64,000 bases of DNA, from the IMG/VR virus record IMGVR_UViG_3300042975_000098; one strand, 5' to 3'. This document shows, piece by piece, positions 13,593 through 49,507 of this stretch. The notes beneath the pieces are model-generated. The model was not told where the DNA came from and did not search any database. It saw only the letters and a program-made list of their open reading frames with translations. Made by a program: the position numbers and the translations under genes. The DNA is from a virus. Position 1 is the first letter of the stretch. The number at the start of each line of letters is the position of its first letter.

Positions 13593-13728
13593 TACGTCGA
13601 TTGCGCTCACACGGCAAGCGTTTGCTTATCGTATGAGCGTATTTTCTCGATGGCGTCGGAAAAACGGCGTTTTCGATGCCACGGTCACAAAACCATGTTT
13701 TGGCGTTCTACGTTGCTCTCAGCGCGCG
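13593..13728 (+). repeat. ~135-bp dispersed hairpin-rich element, copy 1
   Basis: Aligns with 25347..25482 and 49370..49507. Confidence 0.9.
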
Positions 13729-13784
13729 TCGTTGCCGGACGCTCGCATTGGACTTCGCGCCTGATTCCGTGATATAATGAAGAC

Positions 13785-14204
13785 ATGCTGACATTCAACG
13801 CGCGGGAGCTTCTGCCCCCGGATTCACACACCGATTACTCCACCACGATTCGACGACTCGCGGGACTCGCCATCGACGCCGACGGCGGGGTCCTCCGGTT
13901 CAACAGTCCCGAATCGCTCGCGGAGGAGATCATGAGGCTGATGGTGAAATGGCTGCCGCGGGCCCGCGCGCTGAAGATCATGAGCCGCGTGGATTCCTCG
14001 GCACCGGTCGGCGCGGGGACGCCGGCGGCGTTCGCGCGCGGCGTGAGGACTCGCGTGGAGGACACGATCATCCATTACCACCGTGGCGGTGACGTGTGGG
14101 AGGTCGACGAGGACGTGCGCAAGACCATGGCGCTCATCATACTCTACCTCGCCGTCCGCGCCGACGGCGAATGCGGTCTCGCGCTCGATGCCGAGCGCCG
14201 CTGA
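13785..14204 (+). CDS. Hypothetical protein
   Basis: ATG 6 nt after TATAAT (leaderless-type arrangement). Confidence 0.6.
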   Translation: MLTFNARELLPPDSHTDYSTTIRRLAGLAIDADGGVLRFNSPESLAEEIMRLMVKWLPRARALKIMSRVDSSAPVGAGTPAAFARGVRTRVEDTIIHYHRGGDVWEVDEDVRKTMALIILYLAVRADGECGLALDAERR

Positions 14205-14278
14205 TCGGCGTGCTCGATCGGAGCGTGATATGATGATGTCATACGTCCACCGTGGGCGTCAAGGAATAGGGAGGAACG

Positions 14279-14488
14279 ATGGGTAGCAATCTCATCTCCA
14301 AGTTGGCGAAGGACGCCGGCAAGATCGCCGGCAAGGTAGCCAAGAACGTGACCAAGGAAACGGCGACCGACGTGTGGTCGAGCACGAGGACCGCCGCCAC
14401 GAAGCTCGCGGCCGGCGCCAAGGAGTTCGCCTCCGGCGCCAAGGATGCGTTCAATGACGAGCTTAACGGCAAGGGAGGTGAACAATGA
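14279..14488 (+). CDS. Small Ala/Lys-rich hypothetical protein
   Basis: SD GGAGG; amphipathic repeats. Confidence 0.6.
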   Translation: MGSNLISKLAKDAGKIAGKVAKNVTKETATDVWSSTRTAATKLAAGAKEFASGAKDAFNDELNGKGGEQ

Positions 14489-14637
14489 GTTCGAACTCCG
14501 GTACCGCACTGCGACGTCGCGCGGAGAAGAAGGCCGCGAACAAGAAGATCGATGACGACAAGGATAGGGTCGCACGACTCAATCGCATGATCCAGCATCG
14601 TGGCGAACGTTACGATGACGAGGTTCACGCCGACTGA
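14485..14637 (+). CDS. Small charged hypothetical protein (50 aa)
   Basis: SD GGAGGT, ATGA overlap with the upstream stop; MSSNSGTALRRRAEKK...; followed by a hairpin. Confidence 0.55.
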   Translation: MSSNSGTALRRRAEKKAANKKIDDDKDRVARLNRMIQHRGERYDDEVHAD

Positions 14638-14658
14638 CCGCTGGCTGATCGATAACCG

Positions 14659-14693
14659 GGGGCACCGGGAATCCATGTGGTTCCCGGTGCCCC
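14659..14693. terminator. GC-rich hairpin
   Basis: GGGGCACCGGGAA-N9-TTCCCGGTGCCCC. Confidence 0.6.
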
Positions 14694-14763
14694 TTATCAT
14701 GTCCTCACGCCCGTTGGATCGGTATAATATACTCACGATCCGATAACGATGGAAGGATAATGG

Positions 14764-15918
14764 ATGGCCAAGAAGAAGGAAACGAACGATTCCGAGCTGT
14801 CAGAGAAGGACAGGCTCAACAAGGAGTTCATCGAGCAACTCAACAAAAGCTTCAAGGACCCCGGCATGGCGTTCCTGCTCGGCAGCAACACGCGGCTTGA
14901 CGTGAAGACCGTATCCACGGGATCACTGGCCGTCGACAGCATCGCCGGCGGCGGCCTGCCCTACGGGCGCGTCATCGAGATATACGGTCCCGAGGCGTCG
15001 GGTAAGACGTCGCTGGCGCTGACGGCGGTCGGCAACGTGCAGAAGAGCGGCGGCAACGCGTTCTACATCGACGTGGAGCATGCGCTCGATCCCGTGTACG
15101 CCCGACGCCTTGGCGTGAACACCGCGAAGCTCGGCTTCTCACAGCCATCGTATGCGGAGCAGGCGCTGAACATTCTCAATGAGGTCGTCAAGTCCGGTGT
15201 GTATGACATCGTGGTGCTCGATTCGGTGGCGTCGCTGACGCCGCTGGCGGAGCTCAGCGGCACGCTGGATGACAACTCGGTCGGTCTGCTGGCCCGCAAG
15301 ATGGGGCAGGCGTTGAGAATGATCACTCCGGCCGCCTCGAAGACGAACACCATCGTCGTGTTCATCAACCAGACGCGCGAGAAGGTCGGCGTCATGTTCG
15401 GAAGCCCGGAGACCACGCCCGGTGGCAAGGCGCTGAAGTTCTACGCCAGCCTGCGACTCCGCGTCCAGAAGCTCAAGGTGAAGAAGGATAAGGACGTCGC
15501 CATCGGCACGCTGGTGAAGGTGGAGTGCAAGAAGAACAAGATCGCCCCGCCGTATGGCAAGGCGGAGACGGTGCTCACGTTCGCCCGCGGCATCAACGTG
15601 TCCGCAGAGGTCATCGAGATATGCGTGGCGCACCATATCATCAACAACGCTCGCGGGAGGTTCACGGATGCGGAGACCGGCGAGTCGCTGGCGTTCGGCG
15701 AGCAGAAATTCATCGATCTGCTGGACGATAGGTCGAACGGACTGTATGATAAGTACTACGCGAAGGCCAAGAAGGTTCTGGATGACCGGTCCGCCGAGGA
15801 GGAAGCCGAACCCGATGACATCGACTCAGATGACGGTGATTCGACGGCGCTCGCGGACGGGTCGGCCTTGATGGACCCGGTTCTGGACGCCGCCGACGCA
15901 GCCATCGACGCGGCCTGA
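14764..15918 (+). CDS. recA: Recombinase RecA
   Basis: GRVIEIYGPEASGKT, DVEHALDP.YA..LGV, FINQTREKVGVMFGSPETTPGGKALKFYAS, KNKIAPP. Confidence 0.97.
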   Translation: MAKKKETNDSELSEKDRLNKEFIEQLNKSFKDPGMAFLLGSNTRLDVKTVSTGSLAVDSIAGGGLPYGRVIEIYGPEASGKTSLALTAVGNVQKSGGNAFYIDVEHALDPVYARRLGVNTAKLGFSQPSYAEQALNILNEVVKSGVYDIVVLDSVASLTPLAELSGTLDDNSVGLLARKMGQALRMITPAASKTNTIVVFINQTREKVGVMFGSPETTPGGKALKFYASLRLRVQKLKVKKDKDVAIGTLVKVECKKNKIAPPYGKAETVLTFARGINVSAEVIEICVAHHIINNARGRFTDAETGESLAFGEQKFIDLLDDRSNGLYDKYYAKAKKVLDDRSAEEEAEPDDIDSDDGDSTALADGSALMDPVLDAADAAIDAA

Positions 15919-15979
15919 CCGGAACCAGGTCGGCAACCGGCCCTGACTGGCCATGGGATGAGAGAGTTGAGAGGGAACG

Positions 15980-17737
15980 ATGGTCGAACTGAGCGTGGAT
16001 GATGCGAAGCGCGAGATCAAGGAACGGGTGAGTCTTGTCGACTTCTTCCGCGGCAACGGATTCGAGCTGCGGAAGAAGGGCGGACGATACTGGGCGCTGT
16101 GCCCGTTCCATGACGAGAAGACGCCATCGTTCTCCGTCAACGACGAGACCCGCTCCTACCATTGCTTCGGCTGTGGCAAGAGCGGTGACGTGTTCACCTA
16201 CATGGAGGAGAAGGAGAACCTGTCGTTCATGGAGGCCGTGGATAGTCTCGCCGCCGGCCTTGACATTCAGCTTAAACGAACCCAGCGGGACGAGAACGAA
16301 CCCGATAGGAAGACCCTCCTGCGCATCGTCAAGGCGACCGCCGCATGGTACTGGCAGCGGTACGCCGAACTTCCAGAGGATCACCCGGCGAAGATCGAGG
16401 TGTCCAAGCGCGGCCTGTCCACCGACAACAAGGATCACTATGACCTCCTTGGCTGGGCGCCCGAGAACTCCAAGTCGCTCATCGACCATCTCCATTCGCT
16501 TGGTTTCAAGGATGATGACATGGTGGCATCCGGGGTGATCAGGCGATCGGATGACGGCAGACTGTACTCGCTGCTGCGAGCGCGGCTCACGTTCGTCATC
16601 ACCGACATCCTCAACCGTCCCATCGGGTTCAGCGGGCGTCGCATATTCGGCGACACGAAGGACCGCAAGTACGTGAACTCACCGGACTCGACGCTGTTCC
16701 ACAAGGCCGGCGTGCTGTTCTGCGAGTCGATCGCGAAGAAGCAGGCGGCCAAGGACCACGAGATGTTCGTAGTGGAGGGGCAGTTCGACGTGCTGGCGAT
16801 GCAATCGGTCGGCAAGACGAACACGGTCGCGTCATCGGGCACGGCGTTCACGGAATCGCACGCCGGCCTCATGCGCCGGTTCGTCGGCGAGAAGGGGCGC
16901 GTGGTGTTCTGCTTCGACGCGGATGATGCGGGGCAGGCGGCGGCGATGAAGGCGTTCGTCAACCTACCCAGCCTACAGGGGCAGGCGTACGCGACGATCA
17001 CGAAGGACAAGGACCCCTCGGACATGTACCGTGATGACCCGAAGAGTCTGCTGAACCAGGTGAGCACCATCACGCCACTGTGGAAGCACGTGCTGCTGCA
17101 TGTGGTCGGCCAGCATGACATGACCACCGATCAGGGTCGCAAGGCGTTCATCGTGGACTTCGCCAAACTGTACGAGGCCACCACCGACTCCTACACGGCC
17201 GACTCCATGTTGAAACTCGCCTCCGTGCTGTCCAGCGTGCCCGTGGACGTGCTGTCATCCAAGGGACGGTCGCAGACCGCCGCCGAGCCGACGGCCCCCA
17301 TGATCGATGCGGTCGAGACCGATACCGGGGTGGACGCGCTCGTGGACAATCTGCTGGCGCTGATGCTGGAGAACCCGGATCTGAGGTCGAGACTGCCGGA
17401 GGTCGATCTGCGCGGCGTGCGCGCCCGCAGGTTCGCCCTGTGGATGACGAATCATCAGAACGTCAAGGTGATCCCCGAACTGTTCGCCGGCACGGCGGCG
17501 GAGGCGTACGTGCGCCGGCTGGACGCGCTGGCGCAACGGCTGCACGAGTATGACGAGTTCATGATCCCCGCCGACCCTGCGGAACTCTTCGAGCAGCAGA
17601 AGACCATCATCGCACGCGAGCAGGTGCGTCGACGGACAAGGGACGCGCTCCTGTCGACGGCGGCAACGGCCGACAGCGCCGACCCTGATGTCCTCGCCGC
17701 CGTCGAGGACAAGGTGAGACGTTCCCGTGCGTCATGA
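15980..17737 (+). CDS. dnaG: DNA primase
   Basis: CHC2 zinc finger CPFHDEKTPSF...HCFGCG, KYVNSP, TOPRIM EGQFDV and FDADDAG. Confidence 0.95.
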   Translation: MVELSVDDAKREIKERVSLVDFFRGNGFELRKKGGRYWALCPFHDEKTPSFSVNDETRSYHCFGCGKSGDVFTYMEEKENLSFMEAVDSLAAGLDIQLKRTQRDENEPDRKTLLRIVKATAAWYWQRYAELPEDHPAKIEVSKRGLSTDNKDHYDLLGWAPENSKSLIDHLHSLGFKDDDMVASGVIRRSDDGRLYSLLRARLTFVITDILNRPIGFSGRRIFGDTKDRKYVNSPDSTLFHKAGVLFCESIAKKQAAKDHEMFVVEGQFDVLAMQSVGKTNTVASSGTAFTESHAGLMRRFVGEKGRVVFCFDADDAGQAAAMKAFVNLPSLQGQAYATITKDKDPSDMYRDDPKSLLNQVSTITPLWKHVLLHVVGQHDMTTDQGRKAFIVDFAKLYEATTDSYTADSMLKLASVLSSVPVDVLSSKGRSQTAAEPTAPMIDAVETDTGVDALVDNLLALMLENPDLRSRLPEVDLRGVRARRFALWMTNHQNVKVIPELFAGTAAEAYVRRLDALAQRLHEYDEFMIPADPAELFEQQKTIIAREQVRRRTRDALLSTAATADSADPDVLAAVEDKVRRSRAS

Positions 17738-17741
17738 TATT
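17735..17741 (+). promoter_or_regulatory. YGATATT motif 8 nt upstream of the ATG
   Basis: TGATATT-ctacgagc-ATG, no SD. Confidence 0.6.
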
Positions 17742-17749
17742 CTACGAGC

Positions 17750-19084
17750 ATGGCCAACATGAAGAAAATAGTCCCGCCGCCCATCGCCATCGTCGATAAC
17801 ATCGTGTTCTCGAAGACCGAGGCGTGGGCGTTCTGGAACCTGCCGCTGACGGCCTACGACTTCCTGTCGATGCAGGGGAAGTCGGCCATCCTCGCGCAGG
17901 ATTCCAACGCGCTGATCTCGCTCATGAAGGGGCGTGACGAGCCGGTGGACTGCAAGCTCATCCTCACGAACAGCCCGTTGGACGTGAACCACTGGGAGGA
18001 GAACTACATCGCCCTGTCCTCGACGTGGAACCACCGGTCGGGTTTCGACGAGTTCATCAGGAACCAGATCGACCTCATGAAGCACGAGTACAGCTTCGTG
18101 GATAAGCGGGTGTTCTTCGGCGTGAAGCTCAACAACCGGCTCGCCCTCGATTTCGACGCCATCAACCCGTTCCAGAAAGGGTTCAAGGATGCCATGGAGT
18201 ACACGAAGCGGTTCCTCAACTCGATGCTCGCCGTCCCCAACAACGTCATTCCCGACGAGGAGATAGAACGGGAGCACGCGCTTGAGGAATCGTACAATAC
18301 CATCATCTCGAACAGCGCACTCAATGGCGTTCGCTCGACCACCGAGGAACTCGCCCTGCTCATCAAGCAGACGCTGTACCCCGCCATGCCCGTGCCCAAC
18401 ATCCAGCTTGAAGACGATAGCCGCTGGGGGGCCGGCGACGCGTATGAGGACCTGATAAGCGACATCAGACCACGGGAGAACCCGAAGTACATTCGCATCA
18501 ACCAGACCATCGGCGGACGCCCCTACACCGGCTACCGGGCCACGCTCACGTTCAAGTCGTTCCCGCCGAAGATGCAGCCGCCCATCAGCGAACCATGGAT
18601 ATACTATTCCGTCAACAGCGGCGTGTCCAACCCGTTCGACGTGTTCTCCACGTTCACCATCGTCCCCAACGCCGTCATCCGCAAGGAGATCGAGAAGAAC
18701 AAGAAGATCCGGCAGGATGGCTTCGACAACGCCACGAAAGCGGGAGTCGACCCGTCATCGGAACTCGTCAGCGACCTCGATGAGGCCACGGAGCTTGACG
18801 CGTTCGCCGCGCAGAACCACCAGCCATGGGTGAAATCGACCACGAGAATGGTGCTCACCGCCAGCAGCGTGGAGCAGCTGGAGAAGGACGCCGAGACCAT
18901 GATCCAGAAGTACGGCGACCGCGGCGTCGGCATCAAACTCATATGGACCACGCACGATCAGGTGGACCTGCTGCTGGAATCCATGCCCGGCGCGAACCTC
19001 ATGGAGAAAAGCTTCGTCCAGATGTCCACGATGTCGCTCATCTCGGCATCCGGCTTCAACGTGTACAACGAGATCGGCGACTGA
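17750..19084 (+). CDS. N-terminal half of VirB4/TcpF(ConE)-like protein
   Basis: PIAIVDNIVFSKTEAWAFWNLP...YDFLS resembles the N-terminus of Tn916 Orf16/TcpF-type VirB4; ends at Q..LL.E.MPG...IGD, just before where the ATPase domain would begin; no Walker motifs. Confidence 0.65.
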   Translation: MANMKKIVPPPIAIVDNIVFSKTEAWAFWNLPLTAYDFLSMQGKSAILAQDSNALISLMKGRDEPVDCKLILTNSPLDVNHWEENYIALSSTWNHRSGFDEFIRNQIDLMKHEYSFVDKRVFFGVKLNNRLALDFDAINPFQKGFKDAMEYTKRFLNSMLAVPNNVIPDEEIEREHALEESYNTIISNSALNGVRSTTEELALLIKQTLYPAMPVPNIQLEDDSRWGAGDAYEDLISDIRPRENPKYIRINQTIGGRPYTGYRATLTFKSFPPKMQPPISEPWIYYSVNSGVSNPFDVFSTFTIVPNAVIRKEIEKNKKIRQDGFDNATKAGVDPSSELVSDLDEATELDAFAAQNHQPWVKSTTRMVLTASSVEQLEKDAETMIQKYGDRGVGIKLIWTTHDQVDLLLESMPGANLMEKSFVQMSTMSLISASGFNVYNEIGD

Positions 19085-19085
19085 C

Positions 19086-19646: not shown

Positions 19647-19648
19647 CC

Positions 19649-20818: not shown

Positions 20819-20822
20819 TATT
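20816..20822 (+). promoter_or_regulatory. YGATATT motif 8 nt upstream of the cpaB-like ATG
   Basis: TGATATT-acccacgc-ATG, no SD. Confidence 0.6.
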
Positions 20823-20830
20823 ACCCACGC

Positions 20831-21958: not shown

Positions 21959-21991
21959 AACGGCGGCCCGTCATGATGGCGGGCCGCCGTT
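21959..21991. terminator. Hairpin terminator
   Basis: AACGGCGGCCCG..CGGGCCGCCGTT inverted repeat after the stop. Confidence 0.7.
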
Positions 21992-24480: not shown

Positions 24481-24512
24481 AGGCGACCCCGTTCCATGGA
24501 ACGGGGTCGCCT
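24481..24512. terminator. Perfect 32-bp palindrome
   Basis: AGGCGACCCCGTTCCA|TGGAACGGGGTCGCCT followed by TT. Confidence 0.7.
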
Positions 24513-24603: not shown

Positions 24604-25323
24604 ATGTACGACGCGAACGGCCAGCACGCGATGATCACCAAGGCGGAGGCGCGCGCGGTTTTGAAAATCGTCGGCGACACGACAGCGGACAGGATCGCCA
24701 AAGGCAAGACCATAAACCCGACGTTCCACTCGATCATGCCGTTCGCCAGCGACGAACGACGCCCGTCGGATGGCATACCCGACACCACGGAGCCATACGG
24801 GTATGCCTACATCACGAACCGATTCGCCATCGTTCGCTGGCGAATCGATATCGACGCGGCTCGCCGACATCTCGCCGACGGGGAGACCATCAGCGAGCAG
24901 GCGCTCTCCGCCGCGATCAAGGTCATGCGAAGCTCCGAGCGACTCAATCTCAATGATGATGCGCTGTGGTCGGCGGGCGAGGGGTTCGACAGGGAGATAC
25001 CACGCTCCGTCGACCTGAGCTTCGAGCACATCGCCGGGTCGGCGAGCGCGACCGCAGACGACCGTCAACACATGTACGCGCTTCGCTTCCCCGGTGATGA
25101 TGGCTCCGGGCTGAGCAAGCACGCCGACGATGGTCATGACCGGTTCGACGTGAACACGATCATGATGTCGAAAGCAGGCGCCGCCATCGAGCCGCGGGCG
25201 CGCGTCCACGCATCGCTGATCACGATGAAAGGCGGCATGACCGCCATTCGACTCGACCCCTATGAGCGCCATGACGGCGTCGAGGTGGAGGCGTTGCTGC
25301 TTGGCATGACCCCACATCGGTGA
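24604..25323 (+). CDS. Hypothetical protein
   Basis: 239-aa ORF with host-like codon usage. Confidence 0.6.
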   Translation: MYDANGQHAMITKAEARAVLKIVGDTTADRIAKGKTINPTFHSIMPFASDERRPSDGIPDTTEPYGYAYITNRFAIVRWRIDIDAARRHLADGETISEQALSAAIKVMRSSERLNLNDDALWSAGEGFDREIPRSVDLSFEHIAGSASATADDRQHMYALRFPGDDGSGLSKHADDGHDRFDVNTIMMSKAGAAIEPRARVHASLITMKGGMTAIRLDPYERHDGVEVEALLLGMTPHR

Positions 25324-25346: not shown

Positions 25347-25482
25347 TACGTCGATTACGCTCATACGATAAGCAAACGCTTGCCGTGTGAGCGTATTTTT
25401 TATGCGACGTCGGGAAAACGCCGTTTTCGATGCCACGGTCACAAAACCGCGTTTCCGTGTTCTACGTGGCTTACAGCACGCG
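25347..25482 (+). repeat. ~135-bp dispersed hairpin-rich element, copy 2 (internal segments inverted)
   Basis: Aligns with copies 1 and 3; 25364..25387 is the reverse complement of 13610..13633. Confidence 0.9.
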
Positions 25483-25493
25483 CCGGCGCCGAA

Positions 25494-25500
25494 CGATATT
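25494..25500 (+). promoter_or_regulatory. YGATATT motif 8 nt upstream of the ATG
   Basis: CGATATT-gaccggtc-ATG, no SD. Confidence 0.6.
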
Positions 25501-27426: not shown

Positions 27427-29388
27427 ATGGCATCGGTAGCATCATATAAGGCCATGGCCGAGGATAATCTCGCCTATGGTAAGGCGCCGCGGTTCAGCGC
27501 GATGCGCAAGCATGCCCAACCGTTGTCGGAGCGCGCGCCTGGCGTCATCGATGAGTGGATGCTCGTGAACGGGGTCGACCCCAGTCTGGTCGGCTCCATG
27601 GACCACACGAAGGCATGGTGGAAGTGCAGAACATGCGGCGGCGAGTGGCGTGCGGCCGTGTACTCGCGGGCAATGGGATCGGGCTGCCCTTACTGCTCCG
27701 GACGCCGTGTAAGCGCCGGTTTGAATGACCTTGCAACGGTTGACCCCGAACTTGCAGGGCAGTGGGATTACGAGCGGAATGGAAACGTCAAGCCACAGGA
27801 TGTGGGAATCGGCTCGAAACGTATGACGTGGTGGATAGTGGATGGAGTTCATGTAAGGAAGAGCGTGGCGTACATGCACGGACTTAAGAAGAAGCCCGTC
27901 GAGGTGCGCATGATCTCGGAGAGCATAGCAGCCAGCCGACCTGACCTCATGAGCGAATGGGACAGCCGTAACACGGCGAACCCGCAGGTCGTCAGCGTGT
28001 ATTCCAACGCGGCGGCATGGTGGCATTGCGAGAACGGGCACGTATGGAAGGCGCGAATCGCCAACAGAGCCAACGGAAGCGGCTGCCCCTACTGCTCATG
28101 GCGTCGTGCTATCACCGGGGTCAACGATCTTCGCACAAAAAGACCCGACGTCATGGAGTCATGGTCGGATGACAACACCTTGGACCCGGGAAAAGTGACG
28201 CCAGGGTCCAATCGTAAGGCGACATGGGTATGTCCAAAAGGACATGATTATGAGATGACCATCGTAAACAGGTGTGGACATGGCAACCACTGCCCGGTTT
28301 GCAATGGTTCGAAGCTGCTCAAGGGCTATAACGATCTGGCTACGGTAAGGCACGATGCCGCGCGCCTATGGGCTGACGATCTGAATGGAGGAGTTCACCC
28401 ATGTGATGTTCAATCGCAATCACACCGCGTGTTCTGGTGGAGATGTGACAGAGGGCATGAATGGCGGGACATGGTGAATGGACCGCTGGTCTGCCCGGAG
28501 TGCTGGGCCGACAATCGGAGCGCGGGTGAAACCGAACTCTATGATGCGATCGTCAACATGCTTCCGGTCGCCATGAGGGGCGAGGTCATAAGGAACAATC
28601 GCACGGTGCTTGCGGGGCGGGAACTGGATGTGTACATACCATCCATGAGACTGGCCTTCGAATACAACGGTGTGTACTGGCACGATGAGGAGCATCATGA
28701 CCGCCACTATCACGAGGACAAGTGGCGTGACTGTAAACATGTCGGCGTAACGCTGATGCAGATATGGGAGGATGACTGGATGAATCGGCGGGGTATCATC
28801 ATGGACCACATTCAGGTGTTGCTTCATCAAGCGAACGATAACGCTCGCATAGGCGCTCGACAATGCTCCGTCGCTGACGTGTCCGCGCACGATGTCGGTG
28901 CGTTCATGGATCGGTATCACATTCAAGGGCGCGTGGGAGGTTCCATACGCAAAGCGCTCATGCATGATGGCGTTATGGTCGCCGCCATCATATGCAGTAG
29001 ACGGAATGCGAGCACCATGGTCATCGAACGGTACGCGACTCAATCACACACGCTTGTCCAAGGAGGGTTCACGAAACTGCTGACCAGTATTCTCAGGGAG
29101 AACACCAACATCGACACCGTGCTGACATTCTCCGATCACTCCCTGTCCGATGGCCACTTGTACTCAAGGAACGGGTTCACGGACGACGGGATGATTCCGG
29201 CGGACTACTCGTATGTGATTCACGGGAACAGGGCGCATAAGTTCGGGTACAGGTTGTCGAGGTTCAAATCGGATCCCGCATTAAAGTACGTGAGCGGATG
29301 CTCCGAGAAGGAGTTGGCTCGTATGAACGGAATTCACTGGATCTGGGATGCCGGGAAGACCAGATGGCTTCTCAAAGTGAAAAGGTGA
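27427..29388 (+). CDS. Free-standing putative homing endonuclease: zinc-ribbon repeats + PD-(D/E)xK + GNAT/Mom-like C-terminal domain
   Basis: 4 intact and 1 degenerate WWxC..GHxW..CPxC repeats; S.GE, ELDVYIP..LAFEYNG.YWH, IWEDDW; C-terminal HIQG, RYAT, GGF.KL, FSD...G.LY..GF, WDAGK.RW; lower GC. Confidence 0.8.
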   Translation: MASVASYKAMAEDNLAYGKAPRFSAMRKHAQPLSERAPGVIDEWMLVNGVDPSLVGSMDHTKAWWKCRTCGGEWRAAVYSRAMGSGCPYCSGRRVSAGLNDLATVDPELAGQWDYERNGNVKPQDVGIGSKRMTWWIVDGVHVRKSVAYMHGLKKKPVEVRMISESIAASRPDLMSEWDSRNTANPQVVSVYSNAAAWWHCENGHVWKARIANRANGSGCPYCSWRRAITGVNDLRTKRPDVMESWSDDNTLDPGKVTPGSNRKATWVCPKGHDYEMTIVNRCGHGNHCPVCNGSKLLKGYNDLATVRHDAARLWADDLNGGVHPCDVQSQSHRVFWWRCDRGHEWRDMVNGPLVCPECWADNRSAGETELYDAIVNMLPVAMRGEVIRNNRTVLAGRELDVYIPSMRLAFEYNGVYWHDEEHHDRHYHEDKWRDCKHVGVTLMQIWEDDWMNRRGIIMDHIQVLLHQANDNARIGARQCSVADVSAHDVGAFMDRYHIQGRVGGSIRKALMHDGVMVAAIICSRRNASTMVIERYATQSHTLVQGGFTKLLTSILRENTNIDTVLTFSDHSLSDGHLYSRNGFTDDGMIPADYSYVIHGNRAHKFGYRLSRFKSDPALKYVSGCSEKELARMNGIHWIWDAGKTRWLLKVKR

Positions 29389-32022: not shown

Positions 32023-32069
32023 GCGCGGGCGGGGAACCATTCACACTGGTTTCCCGCCCGCGCTTTTTT
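32023..32069 (+). terminator. Rho-independent terminator of nrdD
   Basis: GCGCGGGCGGGGAACCA..TGGTTTCCCGCCCGCGC + T6. Confidence 0.85.
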
Positions 32070-32138: not shown

Positions 32139-33917
32139 ATGATGTGCTGGCGAACGCCATCGAACAGGGAATCGGCGAGCGCGCGGCGGCAAGAGCAAAC
32201 GACATCCCTCTACATGAACTCCGACGCGAGGAATCGAGGACTGGCGATCATCTCCGCGGATTCCCGAAAAGCACTGCGACTCATCCCCTATGAGCAGCTT
32301 CTTCATATGCTCACGGTCGATCAGACCCCTATGGCGGGGATATCGGACGAACTGCAGGTATCGCGTTCGATGGTGGGATCGGCCATCAAGTTCTACCGAA
32401 TCGATATAAGCCCGGAGACCAAGGCGGTGATGAGGAGGAAGGCGTATGACATAGCGCGGAGCAAGTATCGCGCCATGTGCGCCGATCCCGTGAGAGGCAA
32501 GAAGATTCGAGAGAAGACCAAGGCCACGAACATGCGCAAGTACGGCGTGGAATCCCCAACCCAATCTCCTGACGTCAAGGCACGGATTAACAAGACGCTG
32601 CGAAGGAAATACGGGAAGGGCGGGAGTCCGTTCGCCAACAAGTCGGTGCGCGACAAGGCGACGAAGACCATGATTGAACGTTACGGCGTTGACATCTCAT
32701 GGAAATCGGAAGAAGTCAAAGCGAAGATACGCCGAACTAACATACAACGCTACGGCGATGCAGTCGCCACGCGTTCGCCTGCGGTGAAGAACAAGTCCAT
32801 GAACACCAACATGGAACGGTACGGCGTGAAATGGAATACCGTGTCGCCTGAGGCTAGGGCGAAAGCCAAGGCATCGTACATGCGCCATTACGGCGTGGAT
32901 AACCCGTCGAAATCACCGGAAGTCCTTAACAAGATCGCCAAATCCATGAACAGGGGCGAATCAGCCAACGAGAAGATGGTCGCCGACCTTCTCGATTCCA
33001 TTGGGGTGGCTTACAGGGTGAACGACCATGGCATGATTGGTCAGGAACTCGATTTCGTCATCCCCTCCGCGAAACTTGCGATAGAAGTATCACCATGTTT
33101 CACTCATCATAGCAATGAATCACAGGTTCTCACCATCAAGCCCAAGAAGAGATCCTACCATAAGCATAAGCATGATATGGTCGAACAGCTTGGTTACGAA
33201 CTCATCACGCTGACGGATTCGCATATGACGAGGGACCGGTGGCGCGACCTGACCGCACCGTTCCTCACGCTGAAGACAACGGGAAGAGCCGAACATGTCA
33301 TGTACGGTCGTAACGTCACGATATCACACGAGACCACGAGAAGCGGAAGACGCGAATGCGGATCGTTCATAGACAAGTATCACTTCAGCGGCAACACGCC
33401 GGCGAGCGATTATTTCTCGGTGCGCGATGCTGGCGGGGCGATGGTCGGCGCGTTCTCCCTACGGAAGCCGAGGAAGTCAACAGGCGGCGTCATCGAACTC
33501 GCCAGACTCGTATGGCGCAATGACGTACAGGTAAGGTACGGTCTGTCAAAAATCGTCCACACGATAGCAAGAACCATACCCGCCAACACTCTGCTATCCT
33601 ACTCGGATAACTCCATGGGCAACGGCTACTCGTACATGAGGGCCGGCTTCGCATATCAGGGCGACACGGAGCCCGGTCTCCACTTCGTGAACCCGCATGA
33701 CCCGATGGACAACTACTCGTGGCAGGTGGCGACGCCATGGGGAGCCAAGAGCGGCATCATAGCAAGACTGATACGCCCCATGGAGATCACGAAGAAAGAA
33801 GCGAAGATCATCGTGGAGAAAGACCTCCCCCATAGAAGCGATGACGGTAAGGGATACTTCGCCTATTATGACACCGGCAGTAAAAGATGGGAATATGATC
33901 TTCGCTCCCTACGGTGA
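32139..33917 (+). CDS. Free-standing putative homing endonuclease: YG-repeat DNA-binding region + PD-(D/E)xK + GNAT/Mom-like domain
   Basis: Six T..(E/R)(R/K)YG repeats; S.NE, ELDFVIP..LAIEV; ELARL, YSD...G.G.SY..AGF, YDTG.KRW; lies between nrdD and nrdG. Confidence 0.75.
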   Translation: MMCWRTPSNRESASARRQEQTTSLYMNSDARNRGLAIISADSRKALRLIPYEQLLHMLTVDQTPMAGISDELQVSRSMVGSAIKFYRIDISPETKAVMRRKAYDIARSKYRAMCADPVRGKKIREKTKATNMRKYGVESPTQSPDVKARINKTLRRKYGKGGSPFANKSVRDKATKTMIERYGVDISWKSEEVKAKIRRTNIQRYGDAVATRSPAVKNKSMNTNMERYGVKWNTVSPEARAKAKASYMRHYGVDNPSKSPEVLNKIAKSMNRGESANEKMVADLLDSIGVAYRVNDHGMIGQELDFVIPSAKLAIEVSPCFTHHSNESQVLTIKPKKRSYHKHKHDMVEQLGYELITLTDSHMTRDRWRDLTAPFLTLKTTGRAEHVMYGRNVTISHETTRSGRRECGSFIDKYHFSGNTPASDYFSVRDAGGAMVGAFSLRKPRKSTGGVIELARLVWRNDVQVRYGLSKIVHTIARTIPANTLLSYSDNSMGNGYSYMRAGFAYQGDTEPGLHFVNPHDPMDNYSWQVATPWGAKSGIIARLIRPMEITKKEAKIIVEKDLPHRSDDGKGYFAYYDTGSKRWEYDLRSLR

Positions 33918-36912: not shown

Positions 36913-37243
36913 GCGTTGATTGTACCGGTCCGCGAGAAAGGGCGACGGAAGCCGACGATAACAACATGATTTCCGTCAGACGCATTTTAACGGGTCATAG
37001 AGAGCCTATCACGTAAAAAATGTATGATGAGTCGTATTCGTCACGTAAGGACGCTGGCGGTGCCTTTACGTGACGCTGGCGGCATTGCGTGCGATCGTGC
37101 TCGTTCATGTCATCGAGAGAAAAGCCGGCATGGTTGCTCACGGACATCGCTGCCGATCACCGTGATTGCGGGATGACACAGCGAACCGTCTCATCACCAT
37201 GACCGGTCATACGATGATGATGAAAAAGCTACGACCCAACCCC

Positions 37244-37434
37244 CTCAAATCGTGTTAAAGGTGGGAGCTATCAGGTATACGGACGACAGTCCGAGCAGCC
37301 AACGCCAACGCCAACACGGGAAACCACGCCCCCGCGATACGGAGAAAGTGGTCCAGCCGCGGTCAGCATGGTCCACGTCAAAAGCCACACCCTACCCGCT
37401 CAAATCGTGTTAAAGGAGGGAGCTATCAGGTATA
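37244..37434 (+). repeat. Two copies of a 36-bp repeat (37244..37279, 37399..37434)
   Basis: CTCAAATCGTGTTAAAGGWGGGAGCTATCAGGTATA. Confidence 0.95.
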
Positions 37435-37577
37435 GCGGCGCTAGCCCGCGAATGACCCGGCCACCCAGCGGCACGACCCACGCGGGCAGCACCACTGTGA
37501 ACGATTTGCGATGATAACCCAGTAGCAGGGCCACACCCATAGCCGCGGGCTATCATGGCAATAGGTACAAGGAGACA

Positions 37578-39318: not shown

Positions 39319-39474
39319 ATGAGCGTGATGAAATCTTCGACTGTCATCACCCGAAAAGCCGTCGCCATATGGAGTCGTCATCGGTCATGCGGCTTCTTGA
39401 AGGTTGCATGCAAAGGCAACGTCCGCGCGCGACGACCTTGATCTTCGCGCGCGGACGTTCTCGACTTGTTTACC

Positions 39475-41464: not shown

Positions 41465-41592
41465 AACCACCTCCTCTGTACTAATTATACCATTAAGTAT
41501 AAGACATCGGTGTCTATTTATAACACGCCAGTCGCCGAACCCCGCCGGCGATATTACATGATCCATAGCAGCATGAAATAAGGGAGAACGCA

Positions 41593-43314: not shown

Positions 43315-43335
43315 CAATGGACGATTGGAGACACG

Positions 43336-44784: not shown

Positions 44785-44839
44785 CCAACACGCCGCCCAT
44801 GATATTGCGACACGCAGAGGAACAAGCGTAAGGAGCATC

Positions 44840-46120
44840 ATGGCAGAGAACGACGACACCGAGAAGGACTCGACCTACTCATACCAGGCCGTGGACAAGA
44901 GCACCGAGCGCCACGGCTCCGCGCAGGTCGTCAAAGGCGTCATCGAGGCGAAGAGCCAAAGCCACGCCATCGCGAAGCTCCAAGCCAAGGGCCTCATCCC
45001 CATCAAGGTCGTCAAGGGCACTGGCGCCGTCGGGCTCGACCGGGACATCAGCATACCCGGCATGAAGAAGCGCCCCAAGCTCACGGATCTCGCCGTCATG
45101 AGCCGGCAACTGTCCACCATGGTCGACGCGGGACTCCCGCTCATCAAGGCGCTCGGCATCGTGGAGACGCAGATGAGCAACAAGATGCTCAAGGACGCCA
45201 TCAAGGACGTGCGCATGGACGTCGAGGCCGGGCAGTCGCTCGCCGACGGCCTATCCAAACACGAGGACGTGTTCCCGCTGCTCATGATCTACATGGTCAA
45301 GGCCGGTCAGGAGGGCGGGTTCCTCGAACGCGCCCTCCTCAGCGTCGCCGACAACTTCGAAGCCGACGTGAAGCTCCGACGGCAGATCAAATCGGCCATG
45401 GCCTACCCCATCGTCGTCCTCGTCGTCGCCCTCATCGCCGTCAGCGCCATGCTCATCTTCATCGTGCCGACGTTCGCCAGCATGTTCGCCAGCATGGGCG
45501 GTTCGCTCCCGCCGCTCACCCAGTTCATGGTCAACCTCAGCCACCACATGCCCGCCATCCTCGGCGTCAGTGCCGTCGCCGTCATCGCCTTCACCATATG
45601 GTGGAGACGCAACAAGAACAAGGACAAGGTGCGCGAGGTCGCCGACAAGATCAAGGTCAAGCTCCCCGTGTTCGGCGAACTCAACAAGAAGATCGCCGTC
45701 ACCAGGTATGCCCGCAACCTGTCGACGATGATGGAGAGCGCCGTCCCCATCATCCATGCGCTCAACATCGTCGGCGAGACATCGGGGAACTGGCTCGTAG
45801 AACAGGCGAGTCACCGTGTCGCCAACGGCCTGCGCGAGGGCGGCGACCTCGGCAAGACCATGGCGACCGAACCGATCTTCCCCGTCATGCTCACGCAGAT
45901 GGTGGCGGCCGGTGACGATTCCGGTGCCACGGACGTCATGCTTGCCAAGGCGGCCGACTTCTACGACAGCGAGGTGAAAGCGACGACGGCCGCGCTCACC
46001 GCGCTGCTCGAACCGCTCATGATCGTGTTCCTAGGTGGAATTATCGGAACATTGGTAGTAGCACTTTACCTTCCGACTTTTTCCATCTTCTCACAGATAC
46101 AACAATCAAACAACATGTAA
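44840..46120 (+). CDS. pilC: Type IV pilus platform protein
   Basis: RQL.TM..AG.PL, two T2SSF repeats, AMAYP, EPLMIV..G...ALYLP.F. Confidence 0.93.
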   Translation: MAENDDTEKDSTYSYQAVDKSTERHGSAQVVKGVIEAKSQSHAIAKLQAKGLIPIKVVKGTGAVGLDRDISIPGMKKRPKLTDLAVMSRQLSTMVDAGLPLIKALGIVETQMSNKMLKDAIKDVRMDVEAGQSLADGLSKHEDVFPLLMIYMVKAGQEGGFLERALLSVADNFEADVKLRRQIKSAMAYPIVVLVVALIAVSAMLIFIVPTFASMFASMGGSLPPLTQFMVNLSHHMPAILGVSAVAVIAFTIWWRRNKNKDKVREVADKIKVKLPVFGELNKKIAVTRYARNLSTMMESAVPIIHALNIVGETSGNWLVEQASHRVANGLREGGDLGKTMATEPIFPVMLTQMVAAGDDSGATDVMLAKAADFYDSEVKATTAALTALLEPLMIVFLGGIIGTLVVALYLPTFSIFSQIQQSNNM

Positions 46121-46287
46121 ATACCAAAACGTTAAATCGTTGGAATACCAACGATTGCGAGACTTTCTTTTTATATAGAAATACCAGAACATTGGATACG
46201 GGTGTATAGTAGATAACTACGCAAAAATAATAACGTCGTTTACCTATGTTTACTGTTTTTTATAACAAGCAGTGGTATAATACAGTC

Positions 46288-48468
46288 ATGGCGAAAAGAA
46301 GAAAACCGATATTGGCAACCGACTATCCACTCATCGCCGCCGAATGGGACACGGGCGCCAATAAAAACGTTGACCCGGGAGCGAGTCCTCAGAGCATTTC
46401 AGCGAACTCCCCAGTGCATTACTGGTGGCGTTGTTCTCATGGTCATCCGTCATGGCTGGCAACGCCGGCGTATCGCACACGATTCCCGCAGTACGGTTGC
46501 CCGTACTGCGGGGGACGCAAGGCGATTCCCGGCGAGACCGATCTAGCAACGCTGTTCCCGGAACTGGCGAAGGAATATGCCGCCGACCTTAATGACGCGC
46601 CCGTGAACACCATCAAGCCCGAGGATAAGCATAACTACTGGTGGAGATGCTCACTAGGTCATACATGGCAGGCGGCGCCTAACACGCGGACGAAGAAGCA
46701 CACTCGCTGCAGATACTGCGCCAACCGATATGCTTGGCCCGGTTTCAACGACTTGGCTAGCAAGTTCCCAGACATAGCGGCGGAGTTCGATGTGGAGAAG
46801 AACGACACCACAGCCGATCATGTCGTGTACAACTCGCATCATGTCATGTGGTGGAAATGCGACAAAGGACACTCGTGGTGCGACGATGTTCGAGCGCGAA
46901 CCGAGCGCCATACTCGTTGCCCGCAATGTCACGGCGTATACAAGGGTTACGGTAACCGATTGATACCGGGAGTGAACGATCTTCTCTCGGCCCACCCCGA
47001 ACTTCGCGAATACTGGAACGAGCCGACCTATGATAATACCCTGCCAAACTCGAACAAAAAATACCAATGGAAATGCCCGAAAGGACACACTTGGCTGGCT
47101 TCGCCGAACTCTCTTATGAGCAGCACCAAGGATTATTGTCCATACTGCTCGAACTCAAGGGTGTGGTCAGGCTTCAATGACCTACAGACATTGTTCCCGG
47201 ACATCGCCAAGGAATGGGATGCCGATAAGAACAAGAGACCAGCATCACAGGCCTTGCCCTTCTCCAATAAACGGGTCTGGTGGAAATGCGCCGCGCATGG
47301 CCACTCATGGTCATCACCGATGAACTTGAGGACGACAGCGAAGAACGCTACCGGTTGTCCGTATTGCTCGAATCATCGCATCTTGGTCGGTTTCAACGAT
47401 CTCGCCACCACGAACCCGGAACTTGCGAAGGAATGGAACACCGATCGTAATGGAGGCCTTACCCCGAAGGATGTCGTCGCCGGCACCGATAGGAAAGTGT
47501 GGTGGCGTTGCGCGAAGGGACATGAATGGAAGGCGGGAGTGTATTCCAGATCCAATCGTAAAATGCCCACCGGCTGCCCCGAGTGCGCCGCCGCCGAAAC
47601 GTCGAGCCGCGGCGAGATCGAGGTGCGCGATTACATCACGTCATTGCTGCCGACCGGCACCGAGGTGCTGGCGAACGACCGTACCGCCATCGCGCCGAAG
47701 GAACTCGACGCGTACGTGCCATCGTTGGCGATCGCCGTCGAATACGACGGGATATACTGGCATACCACGATTGCCGGTCGCGGGCGCGATTATCATCACG
47801 ATAAGTGGGAACAATGCCGCAAACAGGGCATCCGCCTCATACAGATATGGGAGGACGAGTGGCGCGATCGCCGGCCGATCGTCGAGGACATGCTGAAATA
47901 CGTTCTCCACGCTGGCGACCCGATCCGTATCGGCGCGCGGACATGTGCGATCGATGCTGACGTACCCCGGGCCGATGCCGATGCGTTCATGAACGCGAAC
48001 CACATTCAGGGCCGCGCCAACGCGTCGCTTCGCTTCGGCCTGCGATCCGCGGACGGATCGTTGGCGGCGGTCATGCTCGTGGCACGACGTGAGGATGGTT
48101 CATACCTGCTGACTCGGTATGCGACCACGCTTGGAACCAGCGTCGTCGGCGGGTTCACCAGATTGCTTTCCCACATGCGAGATCGCATCGGTGAGCACGG
48201 CAGAATCATCACGTTTAGCGACCATCGCGTATCAGATGGCGGACTGTACAAGTCCAACGGTTTCAAGCAGGACCTCATGCTGCCGCCCGATTATTATTAT
48301 GTGAACGGCGTGAACCGTGAGCATAAGTTCAACTACCGCAAGGCGAGGTTCAAGAGCAATCCGAATTTGCGTTACGAGGAGGGCCTCACGGAGACGCAAC
48401 TGGCTAGGATCAACGGCCTTGAGCGCGTGTACGATTCCGGCAAGACCCGGTGGCTGTTGGACTGGTGA
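46288..48468 (+). CDS. Free-standing putative homing endonuclease: six zinc-ribbon repeats + PD-(D/E)xK + GNAT/Mom-like domain
   Basis: WWxC..GHxW..CxxC x6; S.GE, ELDAYVP..IAVEYDG.YWH, IWEDEW; paralog of 27427..29388. Confidence 0.8.
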   Translation: MAKRRKPILATDYPLIAAEWDTGANKNVDPGASPQSISANSPVHYWWRCSHGHPSWLATPAYRTRFPQYGCPYCGGRKAIPGETDLATLFPELAKEYAADLNDAPVNTIKPEDKHNYWWRCSLGHTWQAAPNTRTKKHTRCRYCANRYAWPGFNDLASKFPDIAAEFDVEKNDTTADHVVYNSHHVMWWKCDKGHSWCDDVRARTERHTRCPQCHGVYKGYGNRLIPGVNDLLSAHPELREYWNEPTYDNTLPNSNKKYQWKCPKGHTWLASPNSLMSSTKDYCPYCSNSRVWSGFNDLQTLFPDIAKEWDADKNKRPASQALPFSNKRVWWKCAAHGHSWSSPMNLRTTAKNATGCPYCSNHRILVGFNDLATTNPELAKEWNTDRNGGLTPKDVVAGTDRKVWWRCAKGHEWKAGVYSRSNRKMPTGCPECAAAETSSRGEIEVRDYITSLLPTGTEVLANDRTAIAPKELDAYVPSLAIAVEYDGIYWHTTIAGRGRDYHHDKWEQCRKQGIRLIQIWEDEWRDRRPIVEDMLKYVLHAGDPIRIGARTCAIDADVPRADADAFMNANHIQGRANASLRFGLRSADGSLAAVMLVARREDGSYLLTRYATTLGTSVVGGFTRLLSHMRDRIGEHGRIITFSDHRVSDGGLYKSNGFKQDLMLPPDYYYVNGVNREHKFNYRKARFKSNPNLRYEEGLTETQLARINGLERVYDSGKTRWLLDW

Positions 48469-48483
48469 CGAACGTCGGCGGCG

Positions 48484-48666
48484 GCGACCATCGGTAACCC
48501 CGATGGCATGAGGTCTCTCATAGCGATTCCCCCAGCCATCGGCCAGCAGTCGTAGACTGGTATCCTCCAGATCGTAGACGCTGGCGAAGTACATGTCGAG
48601 ATCCCGTGCCGGTTTCCCAGCACGGCGTTCTTCGCGAACACGCCCGCGATCATGTCGCCGACATGG
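48484..48666 (-). pseudogene. Degenerate fragment of the nucleotidyltransferase gene at 63338
   Basis: Reverse complement aligns with 63406..63587 (ATGTCGGCGACATGATCGC...GATCTCGACATGTA...). Confidence 0.8.
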
Positions 48667-48798
48667 ATTGGCCCGCGAATACGACCATCGGCCCTGATGC
48701 CGCTTCGCTAATGAAGTGGGAGGGCCGTAGGGCCGATCCGCTGTTGAACGATGCTGGATGAACTAGTTAGATATTCTTTGAGAGAATGGAGGATATCT

Positions 48799-49125
48799 AT
48801 GTCTAAAATAGTTCATGTTGTAGTTGGTGCGTTCGCTTTCGTTGGCATTGTGGCCACGGCGTTGTCATTTGGGTCGTTGGTGTATGCCGATAGGAAGCTC
48901 CATGAGGCATCTCGTGGTTATAAGTATGGTCCTGCCCGTCATATTGCCTACTATTCTGATATCATGCATAGGACCAGTCGTGATATCGATAGTGCTGCTG
49001 TCGAGATGTATCGTAAATCGACATTTGATGATCAGTTCAAGTATGACCAGATGGTGGATGCGCGCGATTCGGCATCTGATGCCACTCTTCCGCCTCGTAC
49101 GGATACGGGAGGAAGAGTGGCGTGA
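48799..49125 (+). CDS. Low-GC hypothetical protein with N-terminal TM
   Basis: SD GGAGG. Confidence 0.5.
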   Translation: MSKIVHVVVGAFAFVGIVATALSFGSLVYADRKLHEASRGYKYGPARHIAYYSDIMHRTSRDIDSAAVEMYRKSTFDDQFKYDQMVDARDSASDATLPPRTDTGGRVA

Positions 49126-49296
49126 TCACCGGCCAATCGTGAATATAAGTTCAACTACCGCAAGGCGAGGTTCAAGAGCAATCCGGAGCTGCGTTACGAA
49201 GAGGGCCTCACGGAGACGCAACTGGCTAGGATCAACGGGCTCGATCGCGCGTACGATTCCGACAAGACCCGGTGGCTGTTGGACTGGTGACGAACG
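49091..49296 (+). pseudogene. Internally deleted copy of the 3' end of the 46288..48468 endonuclease
   Basis: 49091..49140 matches 47833..47882; 49141..49296 matches 48319..48474. Confidence 0.85.
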
Positions 49297-49369
49297 CGGG
49301 CGTTCGCCGACGGTGCGAGCGCCCGGTACCCATCGCGGACGGCCGCTGGCATGAACATCAATGAGCGTC

Positions 49370-49507
49370 CACGTCGATTACGCTCACACGGCAAGCGTTC
49401 GCTTATCGTATGAGCGTATTTTCCTGGCGTCGCGAGAAAAACGGCGTTTTCGATGCCACGGTCGCAAAACCGTGATCCCCGGTTCTCCGTGGCTTACAGC
49501 GCACGCG
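49370..49507 (+). repeat. ~135-bp dispersed hairpin-rich element, copy 3
   Basis: Aligns with copies 1 and 2. Confidence 0.9.

Follow-up and report, generated by a model that had tools for sequence, protein, structure and literature searches.

Results

Gene content of the window and distribution of the module

The window analysed here, that is, the whole 64-kb stretch of DNA, is part of an uncultured giant conjugative plasmid-like element. It encodes a Gram-positive-type conjugation set (TcpE, VirB4-like halves and FtsK-like pieces), a DnaG primase and a ParA/MinD-like ATPase, and its only transposon is of the IS607 type, with a serine recombinase and TnpB. Among these genes lie three intergenic copies of a non-coding module of ~135-160 bp, all on the plus strand (Table 1), each of which opens with a strong hairpin and a T-run. 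When the flipped core described below is left out, the copies share 80-83% pairwise identity over 107 columns, and the 19-mer CGTTTTCGATGCCACGGTC is invariant in all three, where 0.02 matches would be expected by chance. The initial annotation had reported three same-strand intergenic copies; all of them were recovered at the positions in Table 1, and a covariance-model scan of the 64 kb with filters off returned exactly these three full copies (161-166 bits; next match, 20 bits). The copy count and strand bias therefore hold within the window. The co-orientation is that of only three copies, and most genes nearby also lie on the plus strand.

Each copy is located downstream of a co-oriented plus-strand ORF or ORF remnant. 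Copy 1 begins 113 nt past the stop codon of a 5'-3' exonuclease gene (12407-13480) and ends 55 nt short of the leaderless start at 13785, with the DnaG primase gene 2.2 kb away. Copy 2 begins 24 nt past the stop codon of an ORF at 24604-25323 and is followed by the ATG (25509) of an FtsK-like C-terminal piece; farther upstream, at 1.7 kb, is the ParA/MinD-like ATPase gene. Copy 3 begins 80 nt past the stop codon of a remnant that duplicates the 3' end of a DUF4379 gene; on its right, a well-supported minus-strand gene (49530-50066) converges on it, with its stop (49530) 23 nt from the end of the module. Copies 1 and 2 thus precede plus-strand genes, some of them conjugation-related, whereas copy 3 has no co-oriented gene downstream. 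At copies 1 and 3, another hairpin already sits between the upstream stop codon and the element, and other units in the window end in unique hairpins, such as the canonical GC-stem and T6 terminator after nrdD (32023-32063). No establishment-type functions were recognised among the genes flanking the copies, none of these genes was identified as encoding a DNA-binding protein, and no Y1/HUH transposase or RAYT was found in the 64-kb window. A conserved peptide was ruled out, as the frame in which the conserved block is read from an ATG is not the same in copy 1 as in copy 2; copy 3 has no ATG-initiated frame across this block.

The left flanks directly before GTCGATT read TAC, TAC and CAC in copies 1, 2 and 3, and the copy flanks show neither the terminal inverted repeats nor the consistent target-site duplications of a MITE. 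Random orientation with target-site duplications, or the lack of a conserved fold, had been named in the initial annotation as arguments against a folded signal; the copies are instead uniformly oriented and share the fold of hairpin 1. On the right, similarity probably extends ~20-25 nt past the end given in Table 1, into a GATATT-like box, and in copy 1 weaker similarity reaches ~13755. The variable columns are clustered along the module (runs test, P ~0.0005, on an ungapped alignment to which small indels may contribute); this is compatible with constrained blocks, although part of the clustering may stem from such indels.

Table 1. Coordinates of the module copies and of features within or next to them
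Feature	Position	Strand	Remarks
Module, copy 1	13593..13730	+	Covariance model, alignment, gene calls
Module, copy 2	25347..25485	+	Covariance model, alignment
Module, copy 3	49370..49507	+	Covariance model, alignment, gene calls
Hairpin 1, copy 1	13602..13641	+	40-nt imperfect palindrome, 24-nt core in 'A' orientation; then TTTTCT
Hairpin 1, copy 2	25356..25395	+	24-nt core exactly reverse-complemented relative to copies 1 and 3; then TTTTTTAT
Hairpin 1, copy 3	49379..49418	+	Core oriented as in copy 1; then TTTTCC
Two 13-bp AAAAC-N3-GTTTT palindromes, copy 1	13661-13673 and 13689-13701	+	28 nt apart
First AAAAC-N3-GTTTT palindrome, copy 2	25415..25427	+	Central base C instead of G
GATATT leaderless-promoter-like box, copy 2	25495..25500	+	8 nt before ATG 25509

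An exact inversion within hairpin 1

The stem of hairpin 1 comprises ~18-19 pairs in 40 nt, with internal mismatches, and in copy 1 it is closed by 8-bp outer arms, the left of which, TGCGCTCA, contributes one G-U pair. When compared in reverse orientation, copy 1 (13604-13641) matches copy 2 (25393-25356) at 38 of 38 positions and copy 3 matches copy 2 at 39 of 40, the core of copy 3 carrying one loop substitution (GTTTG to GTTCG); the flipped 24-mer first noticed in copy 2 is thereby confirmed. Because this 24-mer is itself an imperfect palindrome, the informative positions are the asymmetric ones: all 10 differ between copies 1 and 2, each as an inversion predicts, and the copy 2 core is therefore a true inversion and not a set of independent substitutions. 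A short segment between inverted-repeat arms is exactly reversed while its flanks keep their direct orientation, which is the arrangement of hairpin-mediated small inversions.

The structure is preserved despite the flip, in agreement with the initial annotation: the RNA energy of hairpin 1 is -20.0 (plus strand) and -22.6 (minus strand) kcal/mol in copy 1 and -24.5 kcal/mol (plus strand) in copy 2, the two strands exchanging roles as mirror images. Across the copies the values are -20 to -24.5 kcal/mol, and a run of T4-T6 follows on the plus strand in all three, with a TATTTT (TANNNT-like) hexamer conserved right behind the stem. Both template switching and a recombinase had been put forward as the cause of the inversion. 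A segment of 24 bp between 8-bp arms is too short for recombinase synapsis, which makes a recombinase implausible and rules out a site-specific invertase, so that realistically only template switching is left. The flipped core would accordingly be seen as the usual footprint of hairpin-driven copying errors rather than as a programmed switch.

Palindromes and promoter-like box behind hairpin 1

The two AAAAC-N3-GTTTT palindromes of copy 1 flank the invariant block TCGATGCCACGGTCAC. Five of the six matches to this motif in the window are inside the element (0.35 expected by chance), and outside the module a single match, with one mismatch, occurs. The second palindrome is kept in copies 1 and 2, at the same 28-nt spacing, and is lost in copy 3. 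A second flipped hairpin had also been described in copy 2. The sequence difference is real, but between AAAACGGCGTTTT and AAAACGCCGTTTT it amounts to one G-to-C change, at the central base of a palindrome of odd length (13 bp); this is indistinguishable from an ordinary transversion and is weak evidence for inversion.

In copy 2, a CTTACA -35-like hexamer lies within the repeat, 18 nt upstream of GATATT. The counterparts of this box are degenerate in copy 1 (GCTCGCATT) and copy 3 (GATCAA), both of which align to it with small indels, as short gapped matches, so that it is intact in copy 2 only. A hairpin followed by GATATT is also found at 4436-4515, and GATATT promoters elsewhere in the window stand without the module. 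The distance from the module to the next start codon is 55 nt for copy 1 and 24 nt for copy 2, with no such codon for copy 3; this variable spacing, together with the GATATT promoters that lack the module, ruled out a promoter-upstream element acting at a fixed distance.

Secondary structure beyond hairpin 1

Hairpin 1 is the sole robust structure of the module. Hairpins 2 and 3, at -1 to -9 kcal/mol as DNA, are weak, the fold z-scores of the module are unremarkable (-1.2 to -2.7), and the module contains neither a continuous duplex of at least 29 bp nor the long imperfect duplex with -35 and -10 boxes that characterizes Frpo-type signals. Covariation, proposed in the initial annotation as a check on the fold, gave among the three copies no pair with a compensatory change in the plus-strand consensus fold and two in the minus-strand fold, both in a weak outer stem. 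The favoured strand also conflicts within the module: the 5' part folds better on the plus strand and hairpin 3 on the minus strand, where all of its pairs are kept through two one-sided changes (A-U to G-U and C-G to U-G) that break pairing on the plus strand. Assignment of a strand by G-U versus C-A pairs was dropped because parts of the module give opposing answers. The window contains no Rfam match at the gathering score, and permissive thresholds produced chance-level matches only; with no Rfam match and no compensatory change on the plus strand, the structured ncRNA that had been offered as an option finds no support.

Searches outside the window

Exact scans for the 19-mer returned no viral contigs, 10 genome contigs and 14 metagenome contigs; in all 24 the similarity is confined to the 19-mer itself, and these matches were dismissed as chance, as were 67 matches to the hairpin arms in viral contigs, whose flanks show no similarity. 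Megablast and blastn searches of plasmid and phage collections gave no match to the module; proteins 92-99% identical to the FtsK-like piece do exist. The module is absent from all four distant relatives in IMG/VR (35-47% amino-acid identity), and a complete 419.7-kb relative (G001) carries other dispersed repeat families, none of which resembles it.

Discussion

The reading that we favour, with a confidence somewhat short of even, is that the module may be a lineage-specific composite terminator/promoter boundary cassette, the quasi-palindrome of which flips by template switching during replication. The 40-nt hairpin and its T-run would stop transcription arriving from the upstream plus-strand unit, ~90 nt of conserved sequence with the two AAAAC-N3-GTTTT palindromes would follow, and the ancestral form would end in the CTTACA -35-like hexamer and a GATATT -10 box from which the next leaderless gene is started. 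Duplication or recombination, and not transposition, could have carried such a cassette to several unit junctions. The flipped core would then be a neutral by-product: hairpin 1 is a quasi-palindrome closed by perfect 8-bp arms, and template switching from one arm to the other during replication would invert the 24-nt interior and leave the stem intact.

What is read directly from the copies is their anatomy and the inversion; that the module terminates and starts transcription, and how it spread, we infer. Hairpin 1 has the form of an intrinsic terminator, with a stable stem-loop and a T-run downstream of a co-oriented gene, and a consensus terminator scan flagged the copy of it in copy 2 as terminator-like. 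A structure-neutral flip is expected if only the stem matters. It also counts for the cassette that the replicon ends other units with hairpins and that the repeat in copy 2 runs straight into GATATT-N8-ATG. On the other side, a terminator needs no ~90 further conserved bases, including an invariant 19-mer, GATATT is intact in one of the three copies, and the window offers only three copies. Because the genes upstream of copies 1 and 3 have hairpins of their own, the module is not simply 'the' terminator there.

The same features can be read as a single-strand DNA signal on the transferred strand, either a DnaG priming site (G4-type ssi or sso-like) or a Frpo-like hairpin promoter, the repetition of which every 12-30 kb would let a very long single strand become duplex. 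We consider this unlikely, and slightly less likely again the fuller version in which such a strand-specific signal would start complementary-strand synthesis via DnaG or host RNA polymerase, the flips being scars of hairpin extrusion. A module of ~135 nt with three possible hairpins superficially recalls the G4 origin, and the conjugation set and the nearby primase gene would suit such a signal, as would the single orientation of every copy in the window; copy 3 stays on the plus strand even though the well-supported gene closest to it is a minus-strand one. Furthermore, the pairing of hairpin 3 is preserved on the minus strand, which is the template strand of the flanking genes, and the EGeRS1 regions of pLS20, which are repeated and structured and block read-through, are suspected ssDNA elements (PMC8708921). 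However, the covariation results, the inconsistency of the favoured strand and the weakness of hairpins 2 and 3 as DNA all argue against this explanation. For a Frpo-like promoter, -35 and -10 boxes spaced 16-18 bp apart would not fit into the short hairpin 1, and the flip shifts any -10-like hexamer to the other arm, which a positioned promoter should not tolerate. The flanking genes lack establishment-type functions, and the copies span 36 kb, far past any plausible leading region. Of what the initial annotation inferred, fold-preserving inversion by template switching thus stands, whereas ssi, Frpo or ncRNA function gained no support from the tests made here. The role could also be played at the RNA level, hairpin 1 being an RNase III-type processing or 3'-end-stabilising site or the module encoding a small structured RNA. 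Phage T7 has repeated intergenic RNase III sites, and a long stem with internal mismatches, repeated between co-oriented genes and followed by a conserved TATTTT, is what such a site might look like; the failure of Rfam to match even at permissive thresholds, the compensatory pairs (none on the plus strand, two on the minus), the unremarkable z-scores and the lack of a terminator at the 3' end of the putative small RNA nevertheless make this improbable.

Two further explanations concern DNA as a parasite or as a protein target. The module may be a selfish dispersed repeat, a non-autonomous hairpin element of REPIN, PATE or MITE-like type that is tolerated in intergenic DNA and owes its dispersal to gene conversion or to a transposase encoded at another site of the replicon. 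An identity of 80-83% in otherwise unrelated intergenic contexts would be expected of it, copies 1 and 3 stand behind hairpins that could already terminate the upstream gene, as if inserted there, and the left flanks are nearly the same. Strand-biased orientation without target-site duplications, as seen here, fits IS200/IS605-type single-strand transposition. We still give this explanation only a small chance, since the window has no Y1/HUH transposase or RAYT, its sole transposon being of the IS607 type, the module lacks terminal inverted repeats, a defined right end or a convincing right-end hairpin, and only three copies occur in 64 kb. A slimmer chance falls to a double-strand DNA protein-binding array, in which a regulator or partition protein of the element, with a small regulon, would recognise the two AAAAC-N3-GTTTT sites, the 40-bp palindrome or both as operators or as centromere-like sites. 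Two similar 13-bp palindromes 28 nt apart in copies 1 and 2, the invariant 19-mer between them and the ParA/MinD-like ATPase gene upstream of copy 2 are consistent with it, and plasmid p576, with EGeRS2 as its repeated upstream regulatory regions, provides a precedent (PMC6294495). Nevertheless, copy 3 lacks the second palindrome, the distance to the start codon varies, no DNA-binding protein was identified beside any copy, and the motif is absent outside the module save for the one match with a mismatch.

If the boundary-cassette reading is true, the element would be one more large mobile replicon that separates gene units with small repeated terminator/promoter cassettes, and also a clean bacterial example of hairpin-driven micro-inversion; it would aid the annotation of unit boundaries on this giant-element family and leave concepts unchanged. 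If the copies were instead multiple priming or ssDNA-promoter sites, they would be relevant to the survival of a giant element during conjugative transfer in single-stranded form.

Comparison with known systems

REP and REPIN sequences, mobilised by RAYT, are imperfect palindromes in intergenic DNA, often behind genes and sometimes with flipped interiors. Unlike them, the module is of low copy number, has no RAYT or Y1 transposase in the window, and its conserved unit is mostly non-palindromic and outside the hairpin. The single-strand initiation signals Frpo and ssi, known from F-like and other enterobacterial plasmids (PMC9849209 for Frpo in vivo), are strand-specific hairpins on conjugative DNA, sometimes in several co-oriented copies, and the module likewise carries hairpins and occurs in co-oriented copies; however, Frpo needs a long imperfect duplex with -35 and -10 boxes, whereas hairpin 1 has ~18-19 pairs and a flippable interior. 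EGeRS1 of the Bacillus plasmid pLS20 is 420-750 bp long with fold energies of -150 to -220 kcal/mol, its copies lie directly before the RBS of establishment operons within ~20% of the plasmid, and it blocks read-through from upstream and is suspected of functioning in the form of ssDNA or RNA (Val-Calvo et al. 2021, PMC8708921). It shares with the module a repeated, co-oriented, structure-rich intergenic sequence, in its case on a Gram-positive conjugative plasmid, but the module is only ~135 bp long, one copy has no downstream co-oriented gene, and no establishment functions are recognisable among the neighbours.

In chloroplast non-coding DNA, small inversions of 4-50 bp at hairpins are documented (PMC12371153, citing Kelchner and Wendel 1996); there, as here, a short segment (24 nt in the module) between inverted-repeat arms is exactly inverted in situ with the stem preserved. 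The comparison differs in that we set paralogous copies on a bacterial mobile element side by side, rather than orthologous loci of related species, and that the inverted segment is most of the stem and not the loop alone. For the arrangement as a whole, the promoter-early stem-loops (PeSLs) of T4-type phages, which are composite terminator/promoter motifs (Arbiol et al. 2010, PMC2839356; Comeau et al. 2014, PMC4122927), offer a parallel. The module has no sequence relation to them and is longer, with ~90 nt of extra conserved sequence, and the promoter part that PeSLs combine with a stem-loop terminator is intact in one of its three copies. Like PeSLs, the copies recur in one orientation as small intergenic modules of a large mobile replicon, placed at the junctions of gene units.

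Results

The window codes for Gram-positive-type conjugation genes (TcpE, VirB4-like halves and FtsK-like pieces), for RecA, DnaG primase and a 5'-3' exonuclease, for PilB, PilT and PilC, and for NrdD, which has low-GC nuclease-like genes on both sides; real genes were recognised by third-position GC. A direct sequence check showed the initial annotation to be accurate in placing three plus-strand copies of the module, an intergenic repeat of ~135-160 bp, among these genes. The copies can be aligned with MAFFT over about 135-150 columns, are 80-83% identical in pairwise comparison (flipped core excluded) and share an invariant 19-mer, CGTTTTCGATGCCACGGTC, with three occurrences in the window versus 0.02 expected. 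When a covariance model built from the three copies was run with filters off on both strands of the window, full-length matches (161-166 bits) were confined to these copies; the next best scored 20 bits, and the window's other hairpins were among the weak matches.

Coordinates of the module copies, which form one family (repeat-finder extents; distances from right ends are counted from 13730, 25485 and 49507), and of other features of the window
Feature	Coordinates	Strand	Remarks
Copy 1	13593-13741	+	113 nt past exonuclease stop; 55 nt ahead of leaderless start
Copy 2	25347-25495	+	24 nt past a stop; 24 nt ahead of FtsK-like C-terminal piece
Copy 3	49370-49518	+	downstream of duplicated gene remnant; right end 23 nt from stop of convergent minus-strand gene
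Hairpins at other unit ends	4436-4475, 21959-21991, 24481-24512, 32023-32063, 39418-39459		unique, GC-rich; the first is a perfect 40-bp palindrome
IS607-type unit	52576-54636	-	serine recombinase with HTH domain, 54028-54636; TnpB, 52719-54044; 24-nt inverted repeat past TnpB end, 52576-52640
Low-GC (about 0.54) genes	27427-29388, 32139-33917, 46246-48468		DUF4379 or DUF7487-Vsr domains
168-nt duplication	48313-48480, 49135-49302		92% identity; 3' end of DUF4379 zinc-finger (nuclease-like) gene
~49-nt motif	59447-59495, 59623-59671, 59807-59855	+	
~49-nt motif	37234-37293, 37389-37448	-	

The three low-GC genes, which bracket nrdD and come after pilC, have the appearance of free-standing homing-endonuclease-type genes, and the 0.9 kb from the DUF4379 zinc-finger gene to copy 3 has a weak coding signal and is apparently degenerate. 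The second dispersed repeat (five copies of the ~49-nt motif) carries two small hairpins, GCTAT..ATAGC and CCCTC..GAGGG, and its copies lie within non-coding DNA, in two long stretches at about 36913-37577 and 59262-59958; a small RNA or a regulatory repeat are possible identities for it.

The module is non-coding, because its ATG-initiated frames differ among the copies. Its sole strong structure is the first hairpin (-20 to -24.5 kcal/mol as RNA, -11 to -13 as DNA), a 40-nt imperfect palindrome in which 8-bp outer arms (TACGCTCA / TGAGCGTA) enclose a 24-nt core, and a T4-T6 run lies directly 3' of it in all three copies. The other stems are weak, fold z-scores of the whole element range from -1.2 to -2.7, and none of the 42 pairs in the plus-strand consensus fold of the three copies shows compensatory change. 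Nor is the favoured strand consistent: for the 5' part the plus strand gives the more stable fold, and hairpin 3, a weaker downstream stem, keeps complete pairing on the minus strand only, via two one-sided changes. Copies 1 and 2 contain two AAAAC-N3-GTTTT palindromes, 28 nt apart. No Rfam family matched the module in a search of the window.

The proposal that the core of the first hairpin is reverse-complemented in copy 2 was confirmed. By BLAST, 13604-13641 in copy 1 is the reverse complement of 25356-25393 in copy 2 at 38 of 38 positions, and copy 3 matches copy 2 in reverse at 39 of 40. Seven of the 12 symmetric position pairs of the core are Watson-Crick; at every one of the remaining ten positions, copies 1 and 2 differ in exactly the way that inversion predicts, and the flanks on both sides align in direct orientation, which together establish a true in-situ inversion in copy 2. 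The second flip that had been noted amounts to one G-to-C change at the centre of a 13-bp palindrome, AAAACGGCGTTTT, and is weak evidence of inversion. Both changes are found in copy 2 alone, so one lineage suffices to account for them.

The window has eight sites at which GATATT (or GATATA) is followed after 8 nt by a start codon. Several lie within upstream coding sequence, and the promoter motif therefore has no need of the module. The unique unit-end hairpins include a textbook stem plus T6 terminator after nrdD, and a hairpin-then-GATATT arrangement is also present outside the module, at 4436-4515. Copy 2 leads directly into CTTACA-18 nt-GATATT-8 nt-ATG, and the sequence past copies 1 and 3 can be aligned, with small indels, to this box. 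The gene following copy 1 has TG-n-TATAAT / GATATA-8 nt-ATG (13771-13787), a putative near-consensus extended -10 placed for a leaderless transcript.

Exact 19-mer scans of viral, genome and metagenome contigs and a hairpin-arm scan of viral contigs gave chance matches only, and searches of plasmid and phage collections found nothing similar to the module; for the FtsK-like piece, public assemblies include proteins with 92-99% identity. The module is absent from all four distant relatives found in IMG/VR. One of these, IMGVR_UViG_3300044557_000292 (419,707 bp, complete, with direct terminal repeats), keeps the exo-recA-dnaG synteny. Its dispersed repeats, 70-135 bp long, fall into at least five families, each of 7-14 copies; one of these is a structured family of ~135 nt whose 11 copies occur on both strands, and no family shows sequence relationship to the module.

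Discussion

The simplest explanation of the core flip is that replication switched template between the perfect arms that bound it, template switching being one of the two origins suggested in the initial annotation. A recombinase, the other origin offered there, would need a longer segment than the 24 bp inverted here. Mechanistically, the flip is ordinary: hairpin-associated small inversions of 4-50 bp are known in plastid non-coding DNA (PMC12371153), and the 24-nt inversion falls within that range.

The most likely function of the module would be transcript-boundary control, and we tentatively propose, at somewhat short of even confidence, that it serves as a composite terminator/promoter cassette at unit boundaries, specific to its lineage. 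That copies 1 and 3 align into the copy-2 box suggests an ancestral unit of terminator, spacer and promoter, the promoter end of which would then have decayed in two copies. The genes upstream of copy 1 and of copy 3 are already followed by hairpins ahead of the module, which is therefore an added element and not simply their native terminator. Action on single-stranded DNA, as an ssi or Frpo-like site, which the initial annotation raised, has a minority chance: all copies lie on one strand, a primase gene is near by, and the pLS20 repeats suspected of activity on single-stranded DNA also block read-through (PMC8708921), but none of the present tests supports such a role, and the module is without the long duplex bearing -35 and -10 boxes that characterizes Frpo. 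The three copies have no terminal inverted repeats at their ends and no consistent target-site duplications flanking them; a selfish repeat has lower probability than a boundary cassette, as has an RNA-processing or a protein-binding element.

As a boundary cassette, the module would be functionally like the promoter-early stem-loops (PeSLs) of T4-type phages, which are terminator/promoter motifs (PMC2839356, PMC4122927); in sequence it forms a new family, within a kind already described.
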